Positions 14,164 to 22,224 of a DNA stretch of 35,780 bases are shown piece after piece. Numbering within the stretch: the stretch's first letter is position 1; each line of letters begins with the position of its first letter. The position numbers and the translations under genes are program-made. The stretch lies in the NCBI GenBank assembly GCA_034190305.1, contig JAXHSV010000003.1, positions 1 to 35,780 of the forward strand, given 5' to 3'. Under the pieces are notes generated by a model, which was given only the letters and a program-made list of their open reading frames with translations, was not told the origin of the DNA and did no database searches. Origin of the DNA: Planctomycetota bacterium (lineage in GTDB: Bacteria; Planctomycetota; Phycisphaerae; SM23-33).

Positions 14164-14192
14164 TTGCCTGTCGGCGATCTGTATTTTACATT
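14164..14192 (+). promoter_or_regulatory. Putative sigma70-type promoter upstream of the riboswitch
   Basis: TTGCCT-N17-TACATT about 50 nt before the aptamer. Confidence 0.4.
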
Positions 14193-14242
14193 GTATGTGT
14201 TGCGCGGCCTTGTACGTAGGAGTCGCGTGCAGAAAGAAAATG

Positions 14243-14351
14243 TCCCCGAAAAGGCGTCCCTGCCGGTGAGCGTTCCGGCGGGTCGCAAAGTTACGGGAGT
14301 CGAGAGGTCTTTTTTTTCGGACCTTTCGGGTCAGCCGGGCTGCCGAAGGGG
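14243..14351 (+). promoter_or_regulatory. c-di-GMP-I (GEMM-I)-like riboswitch aptamer, variant
   Basis: CGAAAAGGC, then P2 stem CCTGCCGG/CCGGCGGG, junction TCGCAAAG, P3 closed by AGCCGGGCT, then GCCGAA; P1 CCCCG/CGAAGGGG. Lies upstream of a pilus-like operon that contains an HD-GYP gene. Confidence 0.72.
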
Positions 14352-14455
14352 CTTTCACTAGCGAAGTTTCGCTTCAGTGAACGGTTCCTCTGTGGGTGTG
14401 TATTCCATTTCCCTTCAGCCTTGCGAATGTTTGCCAACAATATCTGCATTTTAGT

Positions 14456-14482
14456 TAAGGCGCGCCGTTACGCAGTCGATAC
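14456..14482 (+). promoter_or_regulatory. Putative sigma28 (FliA)-like promoter
   Basis: TAAG-N15-GTCGATAC versus the consensus TAAA-N15-GCCGATAA. Confidence 0.4.
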
Positions 14483-14615
14483 GACAATGGTTCTGGTGGA
14501 GTATGGTTCTCAAACGCAGAAATGGAGGGAATTGCTATTGAGAGTAATGGAACGTACGTAATTCGTCGGAAATCGTTTTATGAACGTCAATGACACGCAA
14601 AGTGGAGGTGTAACA

Positions 14616-15068
14616 ATGAGTAACAGAACAGGTTTTACATTGGTTGAGATTTTGATTGTCGTGATTATTCTGGGTATTCTCGCGGCAATCGTAATCCCGC
14701 AGTTCACGGAGGCCTCGCAGGATGCCCGGGAGTCCGCCCTGGTTTCAGACCTTCAGACGTTCCGCAGCCAGATCGAACTGTACAAGATTCAGCACAAGGA
14801 CGCGCTGCCCGGCGCAGGAACGGCCAGTTTCGTCGCTGCCATGACAGGTCAGACGGATATTGATGGGGCCGTCGGCACAGACTACGGTCCGTATCTCCAG
14901 AAGATGCCGACCAACCCGTTCAACAACCTGGACACGGTTACGGTCGAAGCCGGCGTCGGCAGTCTCGGGGACGACAGCACCGGCTGGCACTTTAATACCA
15001 GCAATGGGCAGGTTCACGCCAACGACGACGATTCTACCAGCGACGGTACTGCCCATACGGCTTTGTGA
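14616..15068 (+). CDS. Type IV prepilin-like / GspG-like protein 1 (candidate major pilin)
   Basis: Class III signal peptide MSNRTG|FTLVEILIVVIILGILAAIVIPQF; strong GGAGGT RBS; YGPYLQKMPTNPFN motif. Confidence 0.88.
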   Translation: MSNRTGFTLVEILIVVIILGILAAIVIPQFTEASQDARESALVSDLQTFRSQIELYKIQHKDALPGAGTASFVAAMTGQTDIDGAVGTDYGPYLQKMPTNPFNNLDTVTVEAGVGSLGDDSTGWHFNTSNGQVHANDDDSTSDGTAHTAL

Positions 15069-15212: not shown

Positions 15213-15719
15213 ATGGGTCGGCAAAAGGCATTCTCGCTGGTGGAACTTCTGATCGTAGTGGTGCTTTTAGGCATCCTGGCGGCGATTGTCCTTCCGAAGT
15301 TTTCCAACGCCTCGGCCGTTGCACGGGCCAGTATGCTCGCCGACACCCTGCGACTCTTTAGGACGCAATTGCCGGTCTTTGAAGCACAGCACCGCGGCGT
15401 AGCGGCGGGTTATCCAGACGGCGACACCAGCGCGACACCCACCGAAGCTACTTTCGTGCTCCACATGACCAAGGCCTCCAACGACTCCTTCCAGACTGCC
15501 GAACCCGGCACGCCCGGATTCGATTACGGGCCTTATATGAGGCGAATCCCGGAAAATCCTATCAACGAGAAGAATACCGTCAAGATAATCGCCAACAATG
15601 AAGCCTTCCCGGACGACGGAGATAACTCTTACGGGTGGATATACCAACCCGCAACGTTGCTGTTCAAGGCCGATTCCCCCGGAACAGACGATAATGGAAA
15701 GGCGTATTTCGACTATTAA
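15213..15719 (+). CDS. Type IV prepilin-like / GspG-like protein 2 (paralog of protein 1)
   Basis: MGRQKA|FSLVELLIVVVLLGILAAIVLPKF; YGPYMRRIPENPIN motif. Confidence 0.88.
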   Translation: MGRQKAFSLVELLIVVVLLGILAAIVLPKFSNASAVARASMLADTLRLFRTQLPVFEAQHRGVAAGYPDGDTSATPTEATFVLHMTKASNDSFQTAEPGTPGFDYGPYMRRIPENPINEKNTVKIIANNEAFPDDGDNSYGWIYQPATLLFKADSPGTDDNGKAYFDY

Positions 15720-15818
15720 TAACCGATAGCAAGTAGTTAGTCGCCGGTGAGGACAGGTGTTCTTTTCCGGTCTATCGGACAGGAATAAGGTTTTTATGAT
15801 GCCTGGCGGTTTTACAAA

Positions 15819-16190
15819 ATGAAGGAGCTCAAGATGAACGGAACACGGGAAAGAACCGGAGGCGGAACAGTCAAAATCGACGGTTACACCCGCTTTTGCC
15901 TCTCGGCGATAGTTGTGCTTCTGGCGATTCTGATTGTCGGGTTGTGGGCTGAAGGCCCGATTTCCCCCATACCCGATGCCGCCGGAGCAGGCGTCGCGAA
16001 GACGCCGCCCGATGTCCTGCCAAATGCCGGAGCGCAGCGTTTGGCCATGATTAAGGCCATCGGCGCGACCAACGATAAACTTGACAAGATAATCGACCTG
16101 CTGAAAAGCGGCGAGATACGCGTCGGCCTGGTTGAGGAAGGTAAAGGAGACAAGGCGCCCGACAATGTCCATAAACTCCCGAAAAAATAG
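15819..16190 (+). CDS. Hypothetical single-pass membrane protein with a C-terminal amphipathic helix (alternative start 15834)
   Basis: Hydrophobic segment FCLSAIVVLLAILIVGLW; co-directional and overlapping the next gene; AAGGAG precedes ATG 15834. Confidence 0.7.
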   Translation: MKELKMNGTRERTGGGTVKIDGYTRFCLSAIVVLLAILIVGLWAEGPISPIPDAAGAGVAKTPPDVLPNAGAQRLAMIKAIGATNDKLDKIIDLLKSGEIRVGLVEEGKGDKAPDNVHKLPKK

Positions 16191-16686
16191 ATTCATCCCG
16201 GCAGCTCGTCGGTACAGTCGAACGGGCTTTACGCTAATCGAGTTGATTGTGGCGTTGGTCGTATTGGCCGTTGCCGCAGCGATAATAATCCCGTACGCCA
16301 CCGGAACCAGCGGCTTTCAGGCCTCCGCCGCAGCCAGGATGATTATGTCCGACCTGGAGTACGCCCAGAATCAGGCCATTACTACGCAGACGCCGGTGTC
16401 GGTAACGTTCGCCGTTTCCAGTAATTCTTATACTGTCTCTAACGCAAGTGGAACCCTGATCCATCCGATTAGCAAACAGGCGTATGTGGTCGATTTCGAC
16501 ACGAGTAGGGGTTTTGGGAATGTGTCGATGTCATCGGCCAATTTCGGCGGCGCGTCGGTTGTTACGTTCGACGCCCTTGGCGCACCGGACAATAACGGGA
16601 CGGTTACCGTTGTCGCCGGTGCGCATACTTACACCGTAACCGTCGCGCCGATAAGCGGGCGCGTAACAGTCTCCGGAAACGACTGA
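16165..16686 (+). CDS. FimT/GspH-like minor pilin
   Basis: RTG|FTLIELIVALVVL, then AAARMIMSDLEYAQNQAI, VTFDALG and a C-terminal VTVAPISGRV. Confidence 0.85.
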   Translation: MSINSRKNRFIPAARRYSRTGFTLIELIVALVVLAVAAAIIIPYATGTSGFQASAAARMIMSDLEYAQNQAITTQTPVSVTFAVSSNSYTVSNASGTLIHPISKQAYVVDFDTSRGFGNVSMSSANFGGASVVTFDALGAPDNNGTVTVVAGAHTYTVTVAPISGRVTVSGND

Positions 16687-16800
16687 CCGTTTCAGAGACC
16701 TGTTGCGTGGCTCTTAGAAAAGGAGCACGCAAACGCGGAAAAGAAACTCCTCGGGCACCTGCCGGCAGGCAGGAATACCGGCGCGTTTGCGTAAAAGGCG

Positions 16801-18060
16801 ATGATGTTCGAGTTGCTTTCAAGAACCAGGTACGGGCAGATCGGTCTGGACATAGGCGCCGAAAGCGTCAAGATGTTGCAACTGGCTGCGATGCGGGGCA
16901 AACCATTTGTCGCAGCCGCTGCTCTGCGCCGCCTTCCCGAAGACGCCACCAGGCCTGACGCCGACCAGCATATGCGACAACGAATCCTCGTAGATACCGT
17001 CCGTGAGATGCTCGCAAACGGAGTGTTCCATGGACGGAGCGTCGTCAGTTGTTTGCGGGCCGACGAAATAGACATCAGGAATGTTCGCCTGCCTCATGTC
17101 TCTGACGACGAACTGGCTTCAGCGGTTGAGCGTGAATGTCAGGAGCGGTTTGGCTTCAGGGTTTCGGACGATCGGATTCATTGGATCAAGGCCGGTGAAG
17201 TCCGACATGGCGCCGATGCGCGAAATGAAGTCATATTGATTGCCGTTCCTGATGACGTCATTGGTCGGCACCTCGATATGCTTTCGAAGATGCGTTTGAT
17301 CCCCGCCCACATGGATTCCGAGCCGACCGCCCTGTTTGGCGCATACGAGAGATTTCTCCGGCGGGCGTCCGATGACGCATCCGTTACCGTGATCGTTGAT
17401 ATAGGACTGTCCTGCACAAAGGTAATCGTAGCCAGAGGCAAGGCGATTCTGATGATTAAGACCATCGATATAGCCGGTCGGAAATTTGACGAAAGTGTCG
17501 CCAAAGAACTGAATATGAGTTACGCCGAAGCAGCCTCTGTTCGCAGGCGCATATTAGAGACCGGAGACGTCGATTCGACAAAAACAGCACGTTCCGACCC
17601 ACAACCTGAAATGGAAGGCAAGGTGGAATGGTCCGTCTTCGACGCCATTCGCGAGCAGGTGGAGGCGCTGGGGCGTGAGATAAGTCAGTGCCTGCGTTAT
17701 TGCTCGGTTACGTTCCGGGGGCTTCGCCCGAGAAAGATAACACTTTCCGGGGGAGAAGCCTGCAACCGGCGCCTGGTCGAATCGCTGAACGAGTACCTGG
17801 ATTGTGAATGCGTGGTGGGTCAGCCTCTTCGGGGTATCGATCTTGGCGGGGTTGAAATGGGCGGCGAGCGGCGAGGTGAACTGGCGGGGTGGTCGGTAGC
17901 GGCGGGCCTGGCCATTCGCGGACTTTACGGAAAGATTGCCAAAGACGTTAACAACAACACAAGCACAACGTCAATGACGACGAATTGTTCACATAAAACT
18001 ACTTCCGCCGGCGGATTGAAACTTGTCGCTTCCGGCGTCTCCAGACAGGAAAGTGAATGA
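16801..18060 (+). CDS. pilM: PilM-like actin-fold pilus assembly protein
   Basis: IGLDIGAESVKMLQL, VIVDIGLSCTKVIV, ITLSGG and WSVAAGLAIR motifs. Confidence 0.85.
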   Translation: MMFELLSRTRYGQIGLDIGAESVKMLQLAAMRGKPFVAAAALRRLPEDATRPDADQHMRQRILVDTVREMLANGVFHGRSVVSCLRADEIDIRNVRLPHVSDDELASAVERECQERFGFRVSDDRIHWIKAGEVRHGADARNEVILIAVPDDVIGRHLDMLSKMRLIPAHMDSEPTALFGAYERFLRRASDDASVTVIVDIGLSCTKVIVARGKAILMIKTIDIAGRKFDESVAKELNMSYAEAASVRRRILETGDVDSTKTARSDPQPEMEGKVEWSVFDAIREQVEALGREISQCLRYCSVTFRGLRPRKITLSGGEACNRRLVESLNEYLDCECVVGQPLRGIDLGGVEMGGERRGELAGWSVAAGLAIRGLYGKIAKDVNNNTSTTSMTTNCSHKTTSAGGLKLVASGVSRQESE

Positions 18061-18827
18061 TGTCGGCAACGAACCCAATTGGAACGAACAAAGCGGTTCC
18101 CTCGAAAGCAGCGGTAAACTCCGCGCAAGGAGGCGATTCCGTCGGCGCCGACGGTCAGGATGTTCTTGCAGTTCCGTCGCACCAGGTGGAGTTCCTTCCG
18201 AAGTATATCCGGCATCAGCGCCGCCGGCGTCGCCGGCTTATTCGCCAGGGATATCTCCTGGTGGCGTGTTTGGTGGTCATGGGGATACTGACCTGCGTTC
18301 GCGCCGAACGGGCCGCACAGGCGCGCAACAACCTGGCAATGCTTGAAAAAAGCAGTAACAACCTGAAAAAACATGCAGCGAAGATAACGTCGCTGGAACG
18401 TCAGATGTCCGACCTGCTGATCAGGAAACAAATCAACGAGGAACTTGGCTGCCGAACTGATTGCACTGTCGTGCTGGCGGAATTGTGCCGGATAACGCCG
18501 CCGGGCATAGTCCTGGTCTCACTTGATTTGAAGACAGTTGGAGTCTCTGCTGAGGATTCGGAACAACCGTCGCCCGCCACCGGTCATCACGACTTGAAGC
18601 CGGGCGTTGTCGGGGAAAAGGGGCGCAAAGCCGACGCGGAAATCGCTCGGCGCGCTCGGATGGTAATTACCGGTCTGGCGCCTAATGACGTGGATGTAGC
18701 CAACTTCATCGGGCAACTCTCCGCCAGCACCCTCTTGGATAACGTGAACACGGATTATACCAGAACGGTTGTCTTTCGCGGGCAGTTGGTGCGTGAGTTT
18801 CAGACAAAATGCTACCTGGCCCGGTAA
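18057..18827 (+). CDS. pilN: PilN-like protein
   Basis: VEFLP (INLLP-like PilM-binding motif), Arg run, one TM helix, coiled coil, and ITGLA...VANFIGQL; ATGA overlap with pilM. Confidence 0.78.
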   Translation: MMSATNPIGTNKAVPSKAAVNSAQGGDSVGADGQDVLAVPSHQVEFLPKYIRHQRRRRRRLIRQGYLLVACLVVMGILTCVRAERAAQARNNLAMLEKSSNNLKKHAAKITSLERQMSDLLIRKQINEELGCRTDCTVVLAELCRITPPGIVLVSLDLKTVGVSAEDSEQPSPATGHHDLKPGVVGEKGRKADAEIARRARMVITGLAPNDVDVANFIGQLSASTLLDNVNTDYTRTVVFRGQLVREFQTKCYLAR

Positions 18828-18870
18828 TCCGGGCAGCGTAAAACAGAGTAAATTAGGGAGAATTATCGGC

Positions 18871-19479
18871 GTGTTCTTTTCACGCGACAACCTGAGGACC
18901 CCAAATCGCAATAAATCGCGATTTGGGGACTCCCTGATAGTCCTGGGGATTCTGGCGGTGATTACTACCACCTATTTTGCGGTTGTGTATCGCGCCCAGT
19001 CAGCCGTCGCCGAAAACATCTCCGCCCGGACCGCAGAGGTCAAAAACCTCCTCGAAACCGACGCCGCGCAGTCCTGTCGCGTTCCGCAGATGCTCCGTGA
19101 GATCAAACAGATGAAACATCGCTGTAACGAAAAAGACCTGAACCGGCGGCTAACCGAACGACAGGAACTGGAGGGTTTCCTCCACGAAATCACATCGGGG
19201 CTTTCCGGGGAAAAACTTTCCATCCGGTCAATCCATCCGGGAAATCCGTCCTCAAACCCACGTTATAACCGCCTCCCGATTACGCTGAAATTCGAAGGCG
19301 ATTTCCTGACTTTGGGGAGGTTCCTCAACCGGATCGATGATATGACCCGATTGACGCGAATCGAACGTTTGGCAATCAGTTCCGACCACAATAATGAAAA
19401 TCTCGAAATCGAAATGGGCATGAATATCTATTTCACGGAACAGCGAACGAAAACCGACCAAACGGGAGTTTGGAAATGA
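18871..19479 (+). CDS. pilO: PilO/GspM-like protein (start uncertain, ORF open from 18769)
   Basis: One TM helix, then LPITLKFEGDFLTLGRFLNRIDDMTRLTRIERL; GTG 18871 has AGGGAG upstream. Confidence 0.78.
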   Translation: MFFSRDNLRTPNRNKSRFGDSLIVLGILAVITTTYFAVVYRAQSAVAENISARTAEVKNLLETDAAQSCRVPQMLREIKQMKHRCNEKDLNRRLTERQELEGFLHEITSGLSGEKLSIRSIHPGNPSSNPRYNRLPITLKFEGDFLTLGRFLNRIDDMTRLTRIERLAISSDHNNENLEIEMGMNIYFTEQRTKTDQTGVWK

Positions 19480-20138
19480 ACGGCGCGAAGGTGAAACTCG
19501 CGGATTTCATAAGCCGGCTCAAGGCAGAGATACGGCAGGATAAGAAAAAGACAACCATGCTGGTAATTCTGCTGATAGTAACCGGTATCGTCGGCGGCAG
19601 GTTTGTTGTTACTCACGGTCCTGCCGACGACGCCTCCGGCGCCGCCCAAAGACTGATTTCCGATACTGGCGCCGGCGGGGGACGAAAAAGTGAGCGTCAA
19701 ATCCGACGGGTCGATCTCGCCTCAATGGATCGGACCATAAACCGCGATCTTTTCCGGCCCGACATCAAATATTTTCCGCCCGCCGACCAGGCCGATAAAC
19801 ATCCTGTTGCGAACCGGCCTGACCAGGCCCGGCAGATCGCTCAGGCCAAACAACCGGAACATCGACGTCCGACGGACCATGCCGGTTCGATTCGCGCCCG
19901 GGCGGAAGCGCTGAGCCTGACGTGCACCATGCTTGGTCGATCGCCGGCGGCATTAATAAACGGAAAAGTCCTTCGGGCCGGAGAGATGATAAACGGATTT
20001 CATCTCAAGTCCATCGCCTCCGACCACTGTATCGTCGCCGCCGAAGGCGTGGACGTAAAACTGCAAATGAGAAAAAAAGCGATCAGCGATCAGCGATCAG
20101 CGATCAGTAAAATCGCACAAAAAGAAGAAACAGATTAG
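19476..20138 (+). CDS. PilP/GspC-like protein
   Basis: N-terminal TM helix, RDLF (RDPF-like), and a C-terminal beta domain ALINGKVLRAGEMINGFHLKSI; position between pilO and the secretin; ATGA overlap. Confidence 0.65.
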   Translation: MNGAKVKLADFISRLKAEIRQDKKKTTMLVILLIVTGIVGGRFVVTHGPADDASGAAQRLISDTGAGGGRKSERQIRRVDLASMDRTINRDLFRPDIKYFPPADQADKHPVANRPDQARQIAQAKQPEHRRPTDHAGSIRARAEALSLTCTMLGRSPAALINGKVLRAGEMINGFHLKSIASDHCIVAAEGVDVKLQMRKKAISDQRSAISKIAQKEETD

Positions 20139-20193
20139 AACTCGGCATTCTTTTTATCTTTTGCTGATAGATGACAGCTGAATGCTGAATGCT
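20078..20193. repeat. Heptamer tandem repeat (AGCGATC)x4 with an imperfect inverted counterpart
   Basis: 20078-20105 is (AGCGATC)4; 20163-20193 is GCTGATA-GATGACA-GCTGAAT-GCTGAAT-GCT. Confidence 0.8.
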
Positions 20194-20298
20194 TTGTTGC
20201 CGACGGAGGCACAAAGAAATTGACAATAACGGGTACTGCTACAGAAGCGGATTCGCCCTGAGGGGCGGGGCGGGTCAACCTGAATAAGGAGCAAAGCG

Positions 20299-22224
20299 AT
20301 GAAAAAGATTACAGAATTACCTTCCGCATTGGTTTTGGCGTGCGTCACGACGGGTGGGCGTCTGTACCGACGAACGGGACGAGTAATCGCGCCGGCAGTT
20401 TTGGTGATACTGCTGGCCGCTGGTTTGGCCGTCGCCCAGCAGGCCGGTCCCGACACATCCAAACCTGCCGACAATAAAGTCAAATTCGACAGGAAAGGAG
20501 GCGTGGATGAACTCCATGTTCGAGGTGTGGACCTCTGTCAGGTTCTCCAGATGCTCAGCATCCCCAACAAGGTCAACATTATTACCAACAAAGAAGTCAG
20601 CGGAACAGTAACAGTCGATCTGTACAATGTAACATTCACAGAGGCCCTTGATGCGGTGTTGCGATCTGCGGGGTTTGAATACGTCCGCAAGGACAACTTC
20701 GTTTATGTGTACACGCCGAAACAGTTTGCGGAAATACTTGCAGCCGAACGCAAACTACAACTGGCGACGAAGGTCTTCAAACTCAATTACATCACAGCCG
20801 AGGACGCCAAGACCCTTATAAAACCGGCAATGAGCGAGGACGGCGCCATTGAGACGACTCCTGCCGCAGAGATAGGCGTGGTGTCGGACGCTGAAGACGC
20901 CGGTGGAAACGCACTGGCGACCGAAGACGTCCTGGTGGTGAAGGATTACCCCGAAAACCTCAAAAAAATCACCGCCATCCTCAGCCGGCTTGACGTCCGC
21001 CCTCAACAGATTCTTATCGAGACGACCATCCTGCGAGCATCGTTGACCGAAAACAACGCACTGGGTATTGATTTCAACGCATTGGCGGGTATCGACTTCC
21101 GCACGATGGGCTACACCAGCACCGACCTGACGGACCTGACACCCGGCGCCGTACCGGCAGCGGAACTGGACCGGCCTCGGGCAAACTTCAACACCGATTT
21201 CGCCGCAACCGTTCCTCCGGGCGGAGTTTCCATAGGGTTTGTCTATAACCAAGTCAGGGTGCTGCTTCGCGCGCTGGAAACCATTACGGACGTCGTCGTC
21301 TTGGCCAATCCTAAACTCCTGGTTATGAACAAGCAACGAGGTGAAGTCATGATCGGGAACAAGGACGGTTACCTGACTACGACCGTTACGGAAACAACCG
21401 CTACGCAGACAGTTGAATTCCTCGAAACCGGTACTCAACTGATCGTCAGGCCTTACATCGGAAGCGACGGTTACATCCGCCTTGAAATCCACCCGGAAGA
21501 CTCCACCGGCGGACTTACCGCGGATCGGTTGCCTTTCGAACAGACCACCGAGTGCACTTCCAATGTACTGGTCAAGGACGGACACACGATCGTCATCGGC
21601 GGGCTGTTCCGCGAACGCACCACCAGCGGACGGTCACAGGTGCCCGGACTGGGCAACATTCCCATCGCCGGCGTGCTGTTCCGCGAACGCTCCGACGCGA
21701 CAGTCCGCGAAGAGGTGATAATCCTTATCACCCCCCACATCATCAAGCATCCCACCGACGAGGCTGTCTCCGAACAGTACAAAGACGAGATAGACCACAT
21801 TCGCCTGGGACTGCGCAGGGAAATGATGTGGTTCGGTCGAAGCCGCCTGGCGCAGACCCAGATGCGATGGGCAAGACATCATCTCGCCGGAGGAAACCGC
21901 TCCAAGGCGCTGTGGGACCTGAACATGACACTGTCGCTTGAGCCGAGAATGTCCGAGGCAATCAGGCTCAAGGAGCGTCTGACAAAAGAGGCCATCTGGG
22001 CGCATGAACCGCGGAACTCCGACACCGGTTACGTCATTGAGCGGATGATCATGTCCGAAATAGGACAACCTCCCGAGAAGGTCATGGTTCCGCTCAAGCC
22101 CATGGATGGAATGCTCCTCGAGAAGGAAATTCGCGATGCCCTCGGAATAGGTCGGCGATTGGAACTGCCTTTGGAACAATCGGGCGGCGCTCCCGTCCCA
22201 CCTGCAACCAGGGCGAAGGAATAA
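20299..22224 (+). CDS. Outer-membrane secretin (PilQ/GspD family) with a C-terminal helical extension
   Basis: Signal peptide ending AVA|Q, STN/N-domains, LDVRPQQILIE, LANPKLLV, GTQLIVRP, VKDGHTIVIGGLF, VPGLGNIPIAGVLF and EVIILITPHII. Confidence 0.92.
   Translation: MKKITELPSALVLACVTTGGRLYRRTGRVIAPAVLVILLAAGLAVAQQAGPDTSKPADNKVKFDRKGGVDELHVRGVDLCQVLQMLSIPNKVNIITNKEVSGTVTVDLYNVTFTEALDAVLRSAGFEYVRKDNFVYVYTPKQFAEILAAERKLQLATKVFKLNYITAEDAKTLIKPAMSEDGAIETTPAAEIGVVSDAEDAGGNALATEDVLVVKDYPENLKKITAILSRLDVRPQQILIETTILRASLTENNALGIDFNALAGIDFRTMGYTSTDLTDLTPGAVPAAELDRPRANFNTDFAATVPPGGVSIGFVYNQVRVLLRALETITDVVVLANPKLLVMNKQRGEVMIGNKDGYLTTTVTETTATQTVEFLETGTQLIVRPYIGSDGYIRLEIHPEDSTGGLTADRLPFEQTTECTSNVLVKDGHTIVIGGLFRERTTSGRSQVPGLGNIPIAGVLFRERSDATVREEVIILITPHIIKHPTDEAVSEQYKDEIDHIRLGLRREMMWFGRSRLAQTQMRWARHHLAGGNRSKALWDLNMTLSLEPRMSEAIRLKERLTKEAIWAHEPRNSDTGYVIERMIMSEIGQPPEKVMVPLKPMDGMLLEKEIRDALGIGRRLELPLEQSGGAPVPPATRAKE

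Follow-up and report, generated by a model that had tools for sequence, protein, structure and literature searches.

Riboswitches that sense cyclic di-GMP (c-di-GMP) are already known upstream of pilin genes (PMC4744006), and the GEMM motif was reported in 2007 to be common in Planctomycetes and associated there with pilM, pilO and pilQ (PMC1950547). In Vibrio cholerae, the class I (GEMM-I) aptamer Vc2 precedes tfoY. Of the four promoters described for that gene, two upstream of Vc2 give riboswitch-controlled transcripts and two, within or 3' of Vc2, bypass it; an element downstream of Vc2 directed against the ribosome-binding site (RBS) has also been proposed (bioRxiv 10.1101/617340). In Clostridioides difficile, a class II c-di-GMP riboswitch before pilA1 is reported to be an ON switch (PMC4744006). 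We describe here a locus found in a stretch of 35,780 nucleotides (nt), the window, which comprises positions 1 to 35,780 of the forward strand of contig JAXHSV010000003.1 (assembly GCA_034190305.1) from an uncultured Planctomycetota bacterium of the Phycisphaerae lineage SM23-33. The element at 14242-14352 is probably a divergent, functional-looking class I c-di-GMP aptamer in the 5' leader of a transcript that runs toward a type IV pilus operon. Its parts are as follows.

14242-14352, plus strand: c-di-GMP-I (GEMM-I) aptamer, placed by Rfam alignments, our own covariance model R1, the 33-sequence alignment A2, covariation, nucleotide tallies and the predicted fold of P2
14242-14248 / 14344-14352, plus strand: helix P1 of the aptamer
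14254-14286, plus strand: P2 of the aptamer
14289-14341, plus strand: P3 of the aptamer
14253, 14284, 14287, 14334 and 14343, plus strand: equivalents of G20, C44, A47, G83 and C92, respectively
14256-14258 and 14283, plus strand: P2 letters specific to this copy, GUC and U

With Vc2 and the family RF01051 (c-di-GMP-I), the element shares the P1-P2-P3 junction, the G20, A47 and C92 contacts, the AAA linker, C and G letters at positions 44 and 83, and a position 5' of pilus or motility genes. It departs from that family in scoring 24.4 bits against a cut-off of 35, in its 8-nt non-GNRA P2 loop, in a P3 of 20 base pairs with no recognisable receptor and, in this copy only, in the replacement of the conserved AAA/GAC internal loop of P2 by GUC/UC. 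The arrangement resembles that of Vc2-tfoY in having promoters on both sides of the aptamer, so that only some transcripts would carry it, and in a downstream C-rich element for which partner switching is proposed (bioRxiv 10.1101/617340, for Vc2). It differs in that the inner promoter is sigma-28-like and not VpsR-dependent, in that the downstream gene encodes a pilin, and in being known from sequence alone. The pilA1 leader is likewise a c-di-GMP-sensing leader before a type IV pilin gene, but it belongs to another phylum, has an unrelated RNA fold and uses a terminator-based platform.

Direct reading of the sequence places AAAAGGC with its end at 14255 and GGCGTCC at 14253-14259. The P2 stem is formed by CCTGCCGG (14259-14266) and CCGGCGGG (14275-14282), closed by an 8-nt terminal loop, TGAGCGTT, at 14267-14274. 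The distal part of P3 pairs GAGAGGTC (14302-14309) with GACCTTTC (14320-14327) and encloses eight T residues and CG. The C92 equivalent lies within GCTGCCGA and the A47 equivalent within CGCAAAG, which also supplies the AAA linker between P2 and P3; AA follows the base of P2 in all 33 relatives of A2. All sequence features listed by an earlier note on this DNA, made from the letters alone, were found in their places. Across P1, P2, P3, the linker and the ligand contacts there is no mismatch except one G-G in P3. The folding energy of the aptamer gives only a modest advantage over shuffled sequences (z = -1.99), so the case for an aptamer rests on homology and covariation rather than on folding energy.

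The best Rfam model for this copy is RF03167 (c-di-GMP-I-GGC), a variant reportedly defined by Weinberg et al. in PNAS in 2017, which matches at 30 bits where 59 are required (E 4.3e-5 for 551 nt, and E 5.7e-5 for the whole genome). RF01051 gives its 24.4 bits at E 0.018. The region matched to the c-di-GMP-I clan under the E-value threshold is 14244-14348, and an Rfam scan of the whole window at gathering level returned no match. The earlier note had foreseen that covariance searches might score the element poorly, as they do. An Rfam gathering score is an operational threshold, and we argue membership from orthology.

Orthologous leaders in five sister species of the genus contain matches of 102-104 nt that score 34.9-38.2 bits with RF01051, four of the five passing 35. 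When 61 genomes (the source genome and 60 relatives) were searched with RF01051, 27 had a match at E <= 0.1, and 22 were above the cut-off. Among the six genomes of the genus, the leader can be aligned over its entire length, beginning some 100 nt ahead of the aptamer and ending where the pilin gene starts. Because RNAalifold did not recover the base of P3 from the six genus sequences, the GEMM-I structure was written by hand and supplied, together with these sequences, for construction of the covariance model R1. This model finds matches in 40 of the 92 genomes of the taxonomic family, and 33 of its matches make up alignment A2. Standard pairs occupy 96.8% of paired cells in A2, and double changes occur in 28 of the 37 pairs. 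Values this high were not reached by any of 500 shuffles, and structures slid by 1-3 columns pair in only 26-50% of cells. The three-helix junction of P1, P2 and P3 is supported by this covariation, the comparison of homologous leaders that the earlier note had called for. Covariation inside the genus alone is weak, with two double-change pairs, a result matched by 129 of 500 shuffles. Searched against Rfam, 17 of 20 related leaders attain the gathering threshold of a model, RF01051 in 16 cases and RF03167 in one, and no other Rfam family was found in the 20. Among eight public records with genes for proteins closely related to the pilin, six also have an R1 match upstream of the gene.

Conservation upstream of orthologous pilin genes, on which the earlier note had made its proposal depend, is extensive. 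The same pilin N-terminus (GFTLVEILIVVIILGILAAIVIPQF) is encoded 272-529 nt downstream of 31 of the 33 aptamers; the remaining two copies belong to different families within the class. Since orthologues pass Rfam and the covariation in A2 is strong, the element at 14242-14352 is, as judged by comparative sequence analysis, a c-di-GMP-I riboswitch by descent despite its sub-threshold score. The sub-threshold RF03167 and RF01051 matches, the orthologues and A2 all agree with the relationship to GEMM-I that the earlier note proposed.

A second GEMM-I-like element occurs in the same genome (G000:C113:15222-15296). It scores 32.2 bits with RF01051, just below the cut-off, and has several disrupted pairs in P2. 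A separate PilM gene of 380 amino acids (aa) follows it at a distance of 86 nt, and after that comes a gene for a ParA/MinD-like ATPase.

No row of the 33 in A2, this copy included, departs from the shared letters at the G20, A47-A48, G83 and C92 equivalents, and the C44 equivalent is C in 33 of 33, where the 3' side of the P2 loop reads GC, AC or UC. The roles of the G20, A47, C92 and C44/G83 positions have been described (PMC4744006, PMC3764141, PMC11705072). RF03167 is the best-scoring model for this copy, yet its consensus reads CGCGAAg where the copy has CGCAAAG; with A at 47 and a score below 59 bits, the element lacks both the G and the score by which that variant is recognised. A related aptamer in a pilin leader (L050, 520-606) has the canonical A at 47 and scores 59.3 bits with RF03167, against 59 required, so the model cross-hits ordinary c-di-GMP-I aptamers of this lineage. 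GEMM-Ib RNAs, which sense cyclic GMP-AMP (cGAMP), presumably have A in place of G20. Position 20 is G in this copy (14253), and in 33 of 33 relatives, so the GEMM-Ib signature is absent. Because G stands at 20 and A at 47, with the C92 equivalent also intact and C and G present at the C44 and G83 equivalents, the sequence points to c-di-GMP as the predicted ligand, in line with what the earlier note had concluded from the G, A and C contacts.

What sets this copy apart is the internal loop of P2. It reads GUC/UC here and in no other of the 33 copies; the 5' side is AA in 30 of 33 and the 3' side GC or AC in 32 of 33. Conservation of this loop is stated in the 2007 description (PMC1950547); A23, A25 and G42 are reported to be highly conserved positions (PMC3764141), and A25 and G42 form a Hoogsteen/sugar-edge pair (PMC11705072). 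In the predicted fold, P2 of the copy is an almost uninterrupted helix with G 14256 paired to C 14284, the C44 equivalent, while the predicted fold for a sister species retains an open 2x2 loop. The contact between C44 and G83 is described as universally conserved (PMC4744006); both partners are present here, as C 14284 and G 14334, the former in the predicted pair with G 14256. In this structural model, closure of the internal loop may lower affinity. The GUC letters rest on one sequencing run, a possible source of the assembly; two other runs of the study break around the aptamer.

The terminal loop of P2 and the length of P3 are another matter. The loop, UGAGCGUU, is not GNRA, and a GNRA tetraloop occurs in only 7 of 33 related copies; loops in A2 range from 3 nt to branched insertions, and P3 is highly variable in length. 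Two relatives (L047 and L070) have P2 domains of 53 and 58 nt, with insertions replacing the terminal loop, where the other 31 have 18-28 nt, so the terminal loop tolerates whole extra hairpins in this family. For GEMM RNAs generally, the P2 loop is described as "almost always" GNRA and a receptor as present in about half (PMC1950547). The planctomycete family as a whole is, on the evidence of its sequences, at the receptor-less end of known GEMM variation. The earlier note had seen here a non-canonical variant with a different tertiary architecture. That interpretation lacks support in this form: a non-GNRA loop and a long, receptor-less P3 are common among the 33 copies, orthologues with the same loop and P3 pass the Rfam cut-off, and receptor-less members had already been described (PMC1950547). 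Of the unusual features the note named, only the GGCGTCC change is unique to this copy, and the P2 loop and P3 fall within family variation.

Outside the aptamer, the leader and the genes that follow it contain these features.

14164-14192, plus strand: sigma-70-like promoter, with -35 TTGCCT (14164-14169), a 17-nt spacer and -10 TACATT (14187-14192); predicted start at about 14199
14202-14228, plus strand: 5' leader hairpin GCGCGGC / GTCGCGT, past the predicted start and ahead of the aptamer, from sequence reading
14354-14381, plus strand: hairpin directly 3' of P1, without a U-tract, from the fold of 14353-14425
14410-14420, plus strand: C/U-rich element TCCCTTCAGCC, complementary to the aptamer 3' tail (GGCTG..GAAGGG)
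14455-14482, plus strand: sigma-28 (FliA)-like box, with TTAAG (14455-14459), 17 nt and CGATAC (14477-14482)
14508-14543, plus strand: hairpin TCTCAA / TTGAGA, the loop of which carries a degenerate sequence resembling a Shine-Dalgarno (SD) site, TGGAGGGAA, at 14523-14531
14604-15068, plus strand: SD sequence GGAGG (14604-14608) and pilin gene, ATG at 14616, 150 aa, with a prepilin N-terminal methylation motif (Pfam N_methyl, E 1.6e-7)
15213-22224, plus strand: rest of the pilus cluster, namely a second pilin-like gene, a GspH-like minor pilin, PilM, PilN, PilO, an unnamed open reading frame and a secretin (Pfam)

By sequence comparison, the order of sigma-70-like promoter, aptamer, C/U-rich element, sigma-28-like box, SD-like hairpin and pilin gene is conserved across the family. 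In 27 of 31 leaders the pattern TTGNNN-N16-18-TANNNT stands 65-80 nt ahead of the aptamer model, where shuffles give an expectation of 2.2, and the promoter forms a conserved block when the genus sequences are aligned; 14164-14192 was not among the sites given by the built-in promoter scan. Sister species have a hairpin of other sequence in place of the one at 14202-14228, and relatives carry a hairpin of variable sequence at the position of 14354-14381. In 13 of 31 leaders CCCTTC appears in the interval that separates the aptamer from the sigma-28-like box; in control regions of equal length it appears in 0 of 31 downstream, 0 of 31 upstream and 1 of 31 reverse complements. A looser motif set for the C/U-rich element is found in 19 of 31, against 3, 2 and 3 in the controls. 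The element at 14410-14420 is a candidate alternative partner of the P1 3' strand, an anti-P1 and possibly anti-SD-like element.

The pattern [TC]NAAG-N17-CGAT is present with invariant spacing in 31 of 31 pilin leaders, and the box begins about 100 nt past the aptamer in 25 of 31. It resembles the sigma-28 consensus, TAAA-N15-GCCGATAA. Of 30 flagellin genes sampled from the family, 21 are preceded at 150-260 nt by a near-identical box, C[TC]AAGT ... [TC]CGATAA, with a spacing of 16 in 19 of the 21 and of 17 in two. The chance expectation of the loose box pattern was estimated at about 0.03 per 300 nt. A genome-wide search with a loose sigma-28 pattern gave 54 matches, against 37-56 in shuffles and so without enrichment, and is uninformative, as the pattern excluded the copy's own box.

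The sequence RRGGAGGTR occurs in a hairpin loop 41-129 nt past the sigma-28-like box in 26 of 31 leaders, in degenerate form in this genome; the flanking stems vary in sequence with complementarity kept. This hairpin lies 150-300 nt upstream of the real pilin start, and no conserved start codon follows it. Neither the window region nor the related leaders yielded an Rfam match for it. It may be a stabiliser or a protein-binding site, and may resemble the STAB-SD stabiliser of Bacillus and the CsrA sites of flagellin leaders. The idea that the SD-like loop is a second copy of the aptamer 3' tail was rejected as a general rule, since identity of at least 9 nt is limited to 4 of 31 leaders.

The pilin ATG at 14616 is 264 nt past the end of P1 (14352), close to the 265 nt or so given in the earlier note. 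An upstream in-frame ATG at 14580 was discarded as a candidate start, since the corresponding stretch is interrupted by a stop in one sister species. With the operon for the pilin, PilMNO and the secretin downstream, the aptamer occupies a 5' regulatory position before genes of the motility and membrane type. Beyond the secretin are genes for a TPR protein and a PAS histidine kinase; on the same strand upstream of the leader are nadC and a gene of the biotin/lipoate ligase family.

No terminator was found by a scan of the region after the aptamer, and the hairpin at 14354-14381 lacks a T-run, in agreement with the earlier description of a hairpin without a U-tract. Minimum free energy (MFE) folds of whole leaders and of the post-aptamer region disagree among species and reveal no common switch structure. 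Pairing of the P1 tail with CCCTTC appears in the MFE fold for three of the six genus sequences when the 5' half of the aptamer is left out. Duplexes of the aptamer tail with the sequence downstream have weak energies (z +1.2 to -3.6). The switching mechanism and its sign are unproven because there is no terminator, no consistent alternative fold and only weak duplex statistics. The earlier note's verdict of an unclear expression platform therefore stands as regards mechanism, while the leader elements themselves, the promoters and the C/U-rich element, can now be described.

A working mechanism can be outlined. Transcription from the predicted sigma-70-like promoter would proceed through the aptamer toward the pilin operon. 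Binding of c-di-GMP would lock P1 (14242-14248 with 14344-14352); in the ligand-free state, the P1 3' strand CCGAAGGG would instead pair with the C/U-rich element at 14410-14420. The choice between these pairings would alter the fate of the long transcript, through read-through, stability or translation, and a released C/U-rich element could mask a purine-rich site or change stability or read-through. The predicted sigma-28-like promoter at 14455-14482, downstream of the aptamer, would give riboswitch-free transcripts. This promoter would bypass the aptamer, and therefore c-di-GMP would gate only one of two transcript classes. As to sign, we lean slightly toward an OFF switch; this is a guess, made by analogy with Vc2-tfoY and from the sigma-28-like promoter that the pilin has in common with flagellin, whose function belongs to low c-di-GMP. 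In a more elaborate and quite speculative form, which we think rather unlikely, the leader would be a two-input integrator: sigma-70-like transcripts would be gated by the riboswitch, the C/U-rich element would pair with either the aptamer tail or the SD-like stabiliser hairpin, a sigma-28-type promoter of the kind found at flagellin genes would provide the bypass, and the sensor in this genome would have been retuned or disabled by closure of the P2 loop.

Genes for sigma factors of the FliA/WhiG family score above the NCBIfam cut-off in four of five sister genomes, with two each in three of them (G002, G004 and G005). One of these sigma genes is about 2.5 kb upstream of a flagellin gene (G004:C35:31090-31734). 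The two sigma paralogues and the two box spacings, 16 and 17, might go together. Flagellin is encoded in 65 of 92 genomes of the family, including four of the five sister species.

Several observations weigh against a functional class I aptamer controlling the pilus operon. The copy falls below the gathering scores of both RF01051 and RF03167, and its RF01051 score is the lowest among the pilin-leader matches listed. Because A2 was fitted to a model with six founding rows, its pair counts lean toward the structure, and the genomes in it, being related, do not count as independent. All three positions reported as highly conserved in P2, A23, A25 and G42, have replaced equivalents, and the predicted G 14256-C 14284 pair would compete with the C44-G83 contact. 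The unproven switch counts here as well. Finally, neither flagellin nor FlhA, nor any FliA-family gene above the cut-off, was found in the assembly itself (91.5% complete, 379 contigs); the cause is either gene loss or unassembled regions, so this is no proof of absence.

Three rival explanations were weighed. That the riboswitch is decaying or weakened, with a closed P2 internal loop that traps the C44 equivalent, no docking of P2 and P3, and poor or no c-di-GMP binding, would explain the lowest score among the listed leaders and the fact that only this copy of 33 has GUC/UC instead of AA/GC, with G 14256 predicted to pair with C 14284. Mutation of G83 or C44 deprives Vc2 of proper ligand-dependent folding (PMC11705072), and this genome also has the degenerate SD-like loop and an assembly in which flagellar and FliA genes were not found. 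The rest of the aptamer (ligand contacts, AAA linker, P1, P2 and P3) is nevertheless intact apart from the one P3 G-G, as are both promoters, and the two loop sides are complementary, GUC opposite UC plus G, and so look selected rather than random; we consider decay improbable. A variant class with another tertiary architecture or ligand, of the c-di-GMP-I-GGC or cGAMP type, would account for the GGC model outscoring RF01051 and for the lack of a GNRA loop and obvious receptor and the altered internal loop. It has to contend with the A at 47, where the GGC consensus has G, with a G at 20 and not the A we take to mark GEMM-Ib, with the cross-hit of the GGC model to a canonical sister leader, and with loop and P3 features common to orthologues that pass RF01051, and it is very improbable.

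A competitor with somewhat better prospects, still well short of the preferred reading, accepts the aptamer and denies it control of the pilin mRNA. The pilin would be expressed only from the sigma-28-like promoter, and the upstream promoter would give a short riboswitch RNA with c-di-GMP-dependent abundance or stability, or read-through that interferes with the inner promoter. Such an arrangement suits the invariant spacing of the inner box and its usual distance of about 100 nt from the aptamer, and the lack of a terminator or RBS-sequestering helix that would link the aptamer to a start 264 nt away; there is also a precedent in Vc2, which stabilises upstream small RNAs that end at the riboswitch (bioRxiv 10.1101/617340). 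The linkage of aptamer and pilin in 31 of 33 copies is, however, what cis control would lead one to expect, and the enriched CCCTTC after the aptamer resembles a classical expression-platform partner. We retain, with good confidence, the divergent class I c-di-GMP aptamer in the leader toward the pilus operon.

The element adds a sub-threshold member to an RNA family already known, and it is no novel type of sensor, because GEMM RNAs in Planctomycetes and c-di-GMP riboswitches before pilin genes have both been reported, and knowledge of the riboswitch class itself is unchanged. A search of the literature for c-di-GMP riboswitches together with Planctomycetes found only one paper, a general motif survey; the sigma-28 arrangement was not searched further. 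Two aspects are mildly new: the coordinated change that this copy shows in the conserved internal loop of P2, and a leader, found across the family, in which the sensor precedes a flagellin-type promoter. Standard annotation with Rfam at its gathering thresholds overlooks genuine c-di-GMP-I riboswitches of Planctomycetota, this copy being rescued by its orthologues and by covariation. It is also a natural copy in which three P2-loop nucleotides reported as highly conserved are replaced together, and its affinity would bear on the weight of that loop and of the C44-G83 contact. For the organisms themselves, a sensor upstream of a flagellin-type promoter, before a pilin gene, suggests that the decision between motile and sessile life is coupled to pilus production.

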